This document shows, piece by piece, positions 37,862 through 38,130 of a stretch of DNA of 64,000 nt. The notes beneath the pieces are model-generated. The model saw nothing but the letters and a program-made list of their open reading frames with translations. It did no database searches and was not told the DNA's origin. Every line of letters starts with the position of its first letter. The stretch's first letter is position 1. This DNA is from an uncultured Actinomycetes bacterium (lineage in GTDB: Bacteria > Actinomycetota > Thermoleophilia > Gaiellales > Gaiellaceae), in NCBI GenBank assembly GCA_963837265.1, contig CAWIMQ010000003.1, positions 14,694 through 78,693 of the forward strand. The letters run 5' to 3'. The translations under genes and the position numbers were made by a program.

Positions 37862-37930
37862 CATGCTAGAACTGCGTCCGCGGCCAGCCTACGGAACGTT
37901 GGGGCAGCCTTTGCGGATGCCGCCTAGCCC
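37862..37930 (-). promoter_or_regulatory. Conserved upstream module, copy 6 (minus strand: GGGCTAG-N21-CCAACGTTCCGTAGGC-N17-CTAGCATG)
   Basis: TAGCAT ends 6 nt before the GTG start at 37856, which is leaderless geometry. It is arranged back to back with copy 3 in the same divergent intergenic region. Confidence 0.55.
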
Positions 37931-38060
37931 CGGGTCTAGGGTGGCGGCCAACGCCTCGGGCGGACGTCCTTGCCCGCGGGCGGCGGCAGCCCGCGGCTCG
38001 CCGGTACGGCGCTCGGCCGGAACCGGCTCTGCGAGCCTCCTTCCAGATCCCCTGGCCAGT

Positions 38061-38130
38061 CGGCTAGGTGGGAATTCAAAGGCTGCTCCAATGTTGCGTA
38101 GGCCGCTGCGCGAACGGGCTCTAGCATCAA
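38061..38130 (+). promoter_or_regulatory. Conserved upstream module, copy 3 (CGGCTAG-N20-CCAATGTTGCGTAGGC-N17-CTAGCATCAA)
   Basis: This copy is closest to the consensus. An ATG (38133) lies 5 nt after TAGCAT. The homology-supported NRPS start is at 38206. Confidence 0.55.

Follow-up and report, generated by a model that had tools for sequence, protein, structure and literature searches.

Why does the same intergenic sequence recur in front of a small regulator gene that heads a polysaccharide locus as well as in front of nonribosomal peptide synthetase (NRPS) genes, within 64,000 nucleotides of DNA from an uncultured Actinomycetes bacterium of the Gaiellaceae (assembly GCA_963837265.1, contig CAWIMQ010000003.1)? 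That whole stretch is referred to here as the window, and the recurrent sequence as the module. The module is a control region of about 80 bases, which consists of a 16-bp palindrome, a second conserved box (box 2) and a promoter -10 element. Its best-supported interpretation is that of a promoter/operator read by GerE-type proteins, a variant of a well-known system in an uncultured lineage. As far as the sequence can tell, the module is most likely the switch of a small-regulator regulon that is common to the polysaccharide locus and the peptide gene cluster.

Layout of the module and its copies in the window

Read from 5' to 3', the module is composed of the palindrome CTAGCC-N4-GGCTAG, a spacer of 14-17 nt, box 2 with the sequence GCTGnnCCAACG-N3-CGTAGGC, a spacer of 18 nt and the hexamer TAGCAT. 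The earlier note on this DNA had listed six copies. All of them were confirmed at their coordinates by reading each site, and each is intergenic and oriented toward the gene downstream of it. The copies, named c1 to c6, are as follows:

c1, 575-651, plus strand: palindrome CTAGCCGATCGGCTAG at 575-590 (perfect); box 2 GCTGCGCCAACGTCGCGTAGCG at 605-626; TAGCAT at 646-651
c2, 24459-24534, plus strand: palindrome CTGACCAGTTGGCCAG at 24459-24474 (three mismatches); box 2 at 24489-24510; -10 element at 24529-24534
c3, 38052-38127, plus strand: palindrome at 38052-38067; box 2 at 38082-38103; -10 element at 38122-38127
c4, degenerate, 48028-48105, plus strand: palindrome CTAACCGATCGGCTAG at 48028-48043; box 2 at 48061-48083, with a 1-nt indel; TACGAT at 48100-48105
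c5, 56760-56836, plus strand: palindrome at 56760-56775, with the half GGCTAG kept; box 2 at 56790-56812; -10 element at 56831-56836
c6, 37863-37939, minus strand: palindrome at 37924-37939; box 2 at 37887-37908; -10 element at 37863-37868

Copies c3 and c6 form a divergent pair. The palindrome, perfect in c1, carries one mismatch in c3, c4 and c6, and the hexamer is TAGCAT in five of the six copies (TACGAT in c4). The gap between palindrome and box 2 measures 14 nt, except for 15 nt in c6 and 17 nt in c4; that between box 2 and the hexamer measures 18 nt, except for 19 nt in c1; and the trinucleotide AAA usually lies directly 5' of box 2. In all six copies the centre of the palindrome is found 62.5-64.5 nt ahead of the hexamer. 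These measurements correct several details of the earlier description, in which the gap from CGGCTAG to GCTG had been given as 20-23 nt (measured, 14-17 nt) and that from GTAGCG to TAGCAT in c1 as 18 nt (measured, 19 nt). CGGCTAG had also been described there as one outer arm of an inverted repeat, paired with a second arm near the -10 element. It is in fact the right half of the local 16-bp palindrome, which explains the supposed outer arms better.

The composite pattern CCAABGKYSSGTAGSS-N18-TAGCAT matched the window four times without a mismatch, while 0.01 matches were expected from shuffles, and the palindrome was found five times at no more than one mismatch against an expectation of 0.12. 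It had been raised as a ground for doubt that the motif might be equally common in coding sequence; a position weight matrix (PWM) of box 2, run over the window, gave no match inside coding sequence and no further copy. A profile hidden Markov model (HMM) of the whole module, which like the PWM was built partly from the copies that it then recovered, returned exactly these six, with c4 as a partial match only. Additional hidden copies, for example in the region 22661-22820 ahead of the phosphopantetheinyl transferase (PPTase) gene, were detected neither by the box 2 PWM nor by the module HMM. The tetranucleotide CTAG occurs 26 times in the window, about six-fold less often than expected (164). 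Of these 26 occurrences, 11 fall within the six modules, which account for 0.7% of the sequence.

Recurrence in related genomes and the -10 element

The scan of related genomes proposed in the earlier note was carried out on 185,579 species genomes with a query containing only box 2 and the -10 element (CCAABGKYSSGTAGSS-N17-19-TAGCATS). It returned 15 loci, 12 of which belong to nine uncultured Actinomycetota metagenome-assembled genomes (MAGs) labelled as uncultured Actinomycetes, Thermoleophilia or Gaiellaceae; most of these MAGs are long-read bins of the Microflora Danica project (PMC12313526). The palindrome, although outside the query, is present in 12 of the 12 MAG loci, always 14 nt upstream of GCTG, and this constant spacing of an unqueried element serves as an independent validation of the architecture. 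It is absent from the three remaining loci (cyanobacteria and Runella), which were set aside as chance matches. HMM or PWM matches in the coding sequence of ATP-binding cassette (ABC) transporters (L100, position 14121; L101, position 2819) and in Runella (L009) were likewise judged false. In the MAGs, the module was found ahead of genes for GerE proteins and exopolysaccharide (EPS) synthesis, NRPS, PPTase and TauD-like proteins:

L003, L006, L007, L011 and L012: module, followed by the gene of an 88-90 aa GerE protein and then by Wzz-like and Wzy_C genes
L001: module, followed by a GerE gene
L005: module, followed by a gene for a 948-aa GerE::NRPS fusion protein
L008: module, followed by a gene with an NRPS condensation (C) domain
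L004 and L010: module, followed by PPTase and TauD-like genes
L013: module, followed by a TauD-like gene
L015: module, followed directly by a Wzz-like gene

In two further NRPS loci (L100 and L101), the module stands ahead of the fusion gene and likewise ahead of the divergent NRPS operon and of ABC-transporter genes. Divergent pairs of modules resembling c6 and c3, with a fusion gene on one side and an NRPS operon on the other, recur in L005, L008 and L100. The module had originally been regarded as a signature dedicated to one gene cluster; it is instead lineage-wide and also precedes the regulator gene of the EPS locus as well as PPTase, TauD-like and ABC-transporter genes.

In an alignment of 17 modules, the blocks GGCTAG, CCAA.G, GTAG and TAGCAT are invariant, while the spacers are unconserved in sequence and fixed in length. 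The dyad CCAACG-N3-CGTAGG, which had been noticed before in the core of the element, is borne out by this alignment, in which conserved arms flank 3 variable central nt. In more distant GerE loci (L016-L019), the palindrome is kept and box 2 decays. Upstream of the GerE gene of L016 (about 3885-3990), the palindrome lies 10 bp, or one helical turn, nearer to CCAACG. At this locus the -10 element (here TAACAT) keeps its distance of 18 nt, and a leader with a Shine-Dalgarno sequence is found there rather than a leaderless start.

The hexamer TAGCAT fits the actinobacterial -10 consensus TANNNT and stands at the -10 position, as the earlier note had proposed, and it is invariant in 17 of the 17 aligned modules. 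In Mycobacterium tuberculosis, 73% of primary start sites have a TANNNT sequence centred 7-12 bp ahead of them, the promoters lack a consensus in the -35 region, and leaderless transcripts are common (PMC3898074). In distant relatives of the window, the hexamer drifts to TACGAT, TAGATT, TAACAT or TAGGCT, and this drift, which is confined to TANNNT, indicates that it behaves as a housekeeping -10 element. The geometry of leaderless mRNAs, which had been suggested before, is supported comparatively: in 23 of 32 full modules, ATG or GTG occurs 5-8 nt past the hexamer, mostly at offset 6 or 7, and opens an open reading frame (ORF) of at least 79 codons. In the window, c6 shows this geometry, with GTG 37856 placed 6 nt past the hexamer. 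At c3, ATG 38133 lies 5 nt past the hexamer and the frame of the NRPS C domain opens at GTG 38206, and at c2 a start codon falls in the 5-8 nt range and opens a short ORF only.

This arrangement also has consequences for gene annotation. The public call for 603-911 (P0001) starts at an ATG inside box 2, and GTG 662 is the probable true start. In the same manner, the public calls of the small GerE genes P0001, P0033 and P0106 start inside the module, so that box 2 (ATGCTGCGCCAACGTCGC) is translated as MLRQRR. Such calls probably represent a systematic mis-annotation of the start codons of leaderless genes.

The position of the start codons also bears on the possibility that the repeat has no role as a transcription signal and is instead either a structured element at the RNA or DNA level or a small repeat, mobile or duplicated, that resembles a miniature inverted-repeat transposable element. 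The palindrome could form a hairpin, CGGCTAG is complementary to CTAGCATCG, as had been pointed out earlier, and six copies are present in 64 kb together with an IS21 element. Such an origin is nevertheless highly improbable. With start codons 5-8 nt past TAGCAT, the module is placed upstream of the transcript; a scan of the whole window found no Rfam family at threshold; and the one fold that RNAalifold predicted from the 17 modules, at -5 kcal/mol and with a covariation term of -0.29, was that of the local palindrome, whose half-sites degenerate independently and without compensation. The spacers are unrelated between copies, neither terminal repeats nor target duplications are seen, and the modules occupy conserved orthologous positions in different MAGs. 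The idea that CGGCTAG pairs over a long range with CTAGCATCG was dropped, since the palindrome hairpin was the only structure obtained.

With regard to the -35 region, no Escherichia coli-type sigma-70 site (at least 4 of 6 matches to both TTGACA and TATAAT, at a spacing of 16-18 nt) was found around c1 or c3/c6. The best -35 candidate is TAGGCC, which has a 17-nt spacing and matches TTGACA at 3 of 6 positions. The sigma-70 and terminator scans, which were blank around c1 and c3/c6, were read as the lack of a canonical -35 element and not as the lack of a promoter; in the absence of that element, the promoter appears to be activator-dependent. A competing account of this part of the module, also considered in the earlier note, assigns box 2 and TAGCAT to the -35 and -10 elements of a dedicated alternative sigma factor and treats the palindrome as accessory or unrelated. 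The rigid 18-nt spacing between box 2 and the -10 element and a degree of conservation unusual for a housekeeping promoter speak for such a factor. M. tuberculosis promoters normally do without a conserved -35 element (PMC3898074), so that conservation here calls for a specific reader, and GerE is related in fold to sigma region 4, with weak Sigma70_r4_2 matches, below the Pfam cut-off, in the small proteins. Against these points, the -10 element is of the general TANNNT type and drifts in relatives as a housekeeping element does, and the conserved part of box 2 forms a dyad and reaches about -57, which is past any -35 element. Furthermore, neither an extracytoplasmic function (ECF)-like GGAAC/CGTC pair nor any pair at 16-17 nt is present; CCAAC, the candidate for an ECF-type -35 element, sits 29 nt from the hexamer and was ruled out on that distance. 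No sigma factor gene was found among the Pfam-scanned segments of the window or the called genes of L016-L019, L100 and L101. A dedicated sigma factor is thus disfavoured, and we consider it quite unlikely.

Candidate readers of the module

If the module is read by a dimeric helix-turn-helix (HTH) regulator of the GerE type, the second possibility named in the earlier note, the products of the genes behind it are the first candidates. The gene behind c1 (662-911, plus strand) encodes a small GerE/LuxR_C-type protein of about 82 aa and contains one 1-nt homopolymer indel near position 712. With a gathering cut-off of 23.5 bits for the Pfam family GerE (PF00196), scores of 64 bits were obtained for the c1 protein, 53.8 bits for the c6 protein and 70.6 bits for a response regulator encoded at 21147-21767, all of them above the cut-off, and the fusion proteins P0121-P0127 and L005 scored 57-67 bits. 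Soil metagenome proteins of 72-106 aa with the near-invariant recognition helix SVHAVKFHLASVYRKLGVANRTEAA make up a large subfamily, of which the small GerE protein is a member. A scan of three small GerE proteins against NCBIfam gave no named family above the cut-off; the best partial match was EpsA in two cases and MadR in the remaining one. The nearest solved relatives of the GerE proteins are dimeric DNA-binding domains of the LuxR/NarL type.

An association between the palindrome and these genes was observed in 80 metagenome loci fetched by protein similarity alone, in which the palindrome was counted at no more than two mismatches. It was found 80-190 nt before the HTH in 20 of the 21 analysable small-GerE genes, as compared with 13 of 544 control segments (2.4%). 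In the conserved neighbourhood of AsnB-like, GerE, Wzz-like and Wzy_C genes, the GerE gene is the sole regulator. A dimeric GerE-type HTH regulator is therefore the best candidate for the reader of the module, its own genes carrying the module and the palindrome accompanying 20 of the 21 small-GerE genes.

The response regulator (21147-21767, minus strand) is atypical, with Glu in its LVVVE motif (LVVVETSM) where the phospho-acceptor Asp is expected, and its recognition helix TVKFHLSNTYRKLNVANRTEA resembles that of the small GerE protein. It is possibly a second binder or a partner, for example at box 2. Many of its soil relatives (L042-L099) share the sequence WVTEQTVKFHLSN. The palindrome was found in 0 of 51 such response-regulator-type relatives; the 260 nt searched are the coding sequence of their receiver domain, and this count was dropped as counter-evidence, since a coding stretch is uninformative in this respect.

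The gene behind c6 (34885-37856, minus strand), described in the earlier note as a LuxR-HTH/NRPS remnant at 37856, is a real fusion gene with homologues that are intact elsewhere. It encodes a GerE-HTH joined to an NRPS loading module made of a truncated C domain, an adenylation (A) domain and a thiolation (T) domain (GerE-HTH::C'-A-T). Although it is frameshifted in the assembly, it aligns over its full length, across several frames, to the 948-aa ORF of L005 (L005:2870-5704, minus strand), which contains the Pfam domains GerE (residues 8-60), AMP-binding, AMP-binding_C and PP-binding. In most fusion members, the A and T domains are preceded by a C-terminal fragment of the condensation domain, which corresponds to profile positions 219-269 in P0121 and to about 381-456 in the others. 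The condensation match is significant, below or near the Pfam cut-off, in P0123 and P0125, and marginal (E about 1e-3) in P0121 and P0122. At least nine protein clusters combine GerE with AMP-binding or condensation domains, and the fusion members include P0121-P0127, P0134, P0151 and P0206. As these clusters come from independent contigs, one of them a 1.7-kb Joint Genome Institute (JGI) contig, a read-through artefact of a single assembly is unlikely. In four of the four loci examined (the window, L005, L100 and L101), the fusion gene sits behind a module. No description of an HTH-NRPS fusion was found in the full-text literature searched, which is a weak negative. In L100, a single ORF (914-2341, minus strand) combines a GerE domain (residues 155-208) with the ATPase domain of an ABC transporter; this ORF may represent another fusion of an HTH with an enzyme, or else an artefact of an assembly indel.

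The fusion protein might be a working DNA-binding enzyme that occupies the palindrome or box 2 before its own gene and the divergent NRPS operon; like that of BirA, its binding would then depend on the state of adenylation or of carrier loading. We regard this proposal, drawn by analogy, as doubtful. If it were true, the assembly line would report substrate supply or flux to transcription and cross-talk with exopolysaccharide production through the shared operator.

The mechanism that we propose, and consider fairly probable, is an activator-dependent promoter of the housekeeping sigma factor, leaderless or with a short leader, combined with two operators for dimers of the GerE/NarL type and with autoregulation of the GerE genes. 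RNA polymerase with the principal sigma factor would use TAGCAT and start 6-8 nt downstream of it, usually at the A or G of the start codon; given the non-canonical -35 region, the polymerase would probably need help. Box 2 (AAAnGCTGnnCCAACG-N3-CGTAGGC), with its dyad centre near -39, would overlap the -35 region, as the sites of class II activators do, and the palindrome, centred near -75 and 35.5 bp from the centre of box 2, would be an upstream dimer site. Dimers of the GerE family bound at box 2 and the palindrome would recruit RNA polymerase; the palindrome would accommodate a homodimer, and the asymmetric box 2 either a homodimer or a heterodimer. The putative binders are the small protein encoded at 662-911, the HTH part of the fusion protein behind c6 and possibly the response regulator encoded at 21147-21767. 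Since both GerE genes lie behind modules, the circuit would be autoregulatory, with positive autoregulation. The shared operator would couple the EPS locus with the NRPS cluster and, in relatives, with PPTase, TauD-like and ABC-transporter genes. We infer from the sequence which binder belongs to which site, that the effect is activation rather than repression, and which sigma factor is used.

Palindromes that stand without box 2 occur in the polysaccharide locus as well. The site CTAGCCGGAGCGGCTAG at 6057-6073, which has an N5 spacer (one match, 0.06 expected), lies, when read on the minus strand, 16 nt upstream of a TACGAT hexamer and before the AsnB-like gene. The second site, CTCGCCGAAAGGCTAG at 14941-14956, has one mismatch and is located in the divergent intergenic region between a DegT-type aminotransferase gene (minus strand) and a sugar transferase gene (plus strand). 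The polysaccharide locus had been reported as free of the element; in addition to these two sites, c1 stands at its head. It is proposed that the palindrome-only sites extend the regulon.

Several observations weigh against the proposed mechanism. The co-occurrence of palindrome and GerE genes shows that these genes are targets and gives no proof that their products bind. Box 2 is asymmetric in every copy (CCAA against TAGG), which a simple homodimer does not explain. In distant relatives the distance from the palindrome to the -10 element ranges from 46 to 66 nt. Two promoters of the window are not leaderless, as the GTG of c1 lies at offset 10 and c5 has a leader of about 50 nt (ATG near 56888), and the NRPS gene behind c2 probably has a leader as well, so that it would not be leaderless either. 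The PWM and HMM searches are partly circular, and the many indels of the assembly make exact spacings and start codons in the window uncertain.

On the first of these points rests the alternative in which the module is read by a regulator encoded elsewhere, or the palindrome is a repressor operator, and the GerE genes are mere members of the regulon. The palindrome at 6057-6073 overlaps the -35 position of the AsnB-like gene, a possible place for a repressor, and inspection covered 8-20 kb per locus, which leaves room for a distal regulator. Weighing on the other side, the conserved EPS neighbourhood holds no regulator besides the GerE gene, and several GerE paralogues, including two enzyme fusions, lie directly behind modules. 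In addition, the 6-4-6 palindrome with its CCG-NN-CGG core has the geometry of a NarL/GerE-type dimer site, and a site with its centre near -75 is unable to block RNA polymerase. We judge this alternative unlikely and retain activation by GerE-type dimers.

Gene content of the window, significance and known systems

The annotation of the window, which has a G+C content of 72%, covered about 73% of its bases. The genes are arranged as follows:

662-911, plus strand: small GerE gene, heading the polysaccharide locus behind c1
from 915, plus strand: Wzz-like gene
about 1678-3185, plus strand: Wzy_C gene
about 3779-5990, minus strand: AsnB-like gene (MCGICG...)
7205-9249, plus strand: IS21-family element inserted in the polysaccharide locus, with an istA-like transposase (rve and Mu-transposase C domains) and an istB ATPase
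up to 21051, both strands: sugar-modifying genes (as far as about 17,500) and glycosyltransferase genes (18419-21051)
21147-21767, minus strand: atypical NarL-type response regulator
21963-22661, minus strand: PPTase gene
22820-23572, plus strand: short-chain dehydrogenase/reductase (SDR) gene
24616-33095, plus strand: NRPS, behind c2
33219-34142, minus strand: sulfotransferase gene
34885-37856, minus strand: GerE-HTH::C'-A-T fusion gene, behind c6
38206-46036, plus strand: NRPS, behind c3, with the C-domain frame from GTG 38206
47592-47903, minus strand: sulfotransferase gene
48156-54895, plus strand: NRPS, behind c4
56888 to the end of the window, plus strand: NRPS with a thioesterase domain, behind c5

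Within the NRPS genes, the reading frame changes at intervals of a few hundred to a few thousand bases (for example at 28500-30050, 40560-41350 and 53400-54900), and both GerE genes require an indel for read-through. Directly upstream of c2 lies a tract of about 45 nt (24395-24440) composed almost entirely of G with few A, which is either a real G-rich element or a long-read artefact. The repeated frame switches and the poly-G tract fit indel errors of a long-read assembly, which makes the gene calls and exact spacings of the window unreliable. The presence of two sulfotransferase genes within the NRPS cluster hints at a sulfated peptide product. A sulfotransferase gene also adjoins the fusion gene in L101.

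If the proposed reading holds, the module offers a testable regulatory code for the silent NRPS clusters of uncultured soil Actinomycetota, whose parts are the 16-bp operator, box 2 and the -10 element of a leaderless promoter. The operator and its likely activator of 80-90 aa would provide a handle to switch such clusters on in a heterologous host, and the operator may be used as a search key for regulon prediction in long-read MAGs. The distribution of the module suggests that peptide production and surface polysaccharide are under joint control. It also exposes systematic start-codon mis-calls, with ORFs beginning inside a promoter, and reveals a recurrent fusion of a DNA-binding domain with an NRPS loading module, for which the full-text literature search returned no description.

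A literature search on the context of the motif and on stand-alone GerE regulators of EPS in Actinobacteria found nothing specific, and the module is best placed by comparison with systems known from other bacteria. With EpsA (TIGR03020) and RcsA it shares a LuxR-type regulator gene that heads a polysaccharide locus and is probably autoregulated. The small GerE proteins differ from EpsA in that they score 43-57 bits against a cut-off of 170, only the C-terminal HTH aligns and no PEP-CTERM/XrtB system is seen; membership in that family was rejected on the score and the HTH-only alignment.

The lux box is centred at about -42.5. The class II promoters of the LuxR/TraR type resemble the module in the LuxR-type HTH and in a dyad that overlaps the -35 region. 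They differ from it in that the candidate regulators here lack an autoinducer-binding domain, the module has two separate sites, its target mRNAs are predicted to be leaderless, and one element is shared by an EPS locus and several clusters throughout a lineage. LuxR homologues are often encoded in NRPS and polyketide synthase (PKS) clusters, which they control (PMC5872303).

GerE of Bacillus subtilis (74 aa) is, like the small GerE protein of the window, a stand-alone protein with little beyond the PF00196 domain. It binds TRGGY-containing sites near or overlapping the -35 region and acts as an activator or a repressor, and the right arm of box 2, TAGGC, fits TRGGY. Unlike the candidate regulator described here, it works with sigma-K in the sporulating mother cell, and no sporulation context is present in the window; furthermore, CTAGCC-N4-GGCTAG is not a GerE site, and the sequence similarity is limited to the domain. 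Enzyme-regulator fusions are represented by BirA and PutA, in which, as in the fusion gene behind c6, a DNA-binding domain is joined to a pathway enzyme, adenylate-forming or otherwise catalytic, and may control the genes of that pathway. The HTH of the fusion belongs to another family, and its role as a DNA binder and substrate sensor is putative, being read from its sequence.

BldM of Streptomyces is a NarL/FixJ-type regulator with a GerE-type HTH, whose footprinted site is a 16-bp palindrome, TCACcCgnncGgGTGA (PMC4125116). The two palindromes, TCAC-CCGnnCGG-GTGA for BldM and CTAG-CCGnnCGG-CTAG here, share the same inner core and differ in the outer bases of the half-sites. The main candidate in the window is an HTH protein of 80-90 aa without a receiver domain, and the predicted regulon comprises EPS and NRPS genes, whereas that of BldM is developmental. 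An atypical response regulator, as BldM is, is also encoded in the window. BldM-WhiI heterodimers bind a non-palindromic variant of the 16-bp site (PMC4125116), which provides a precedent for the asymmetric box 2 of the module.

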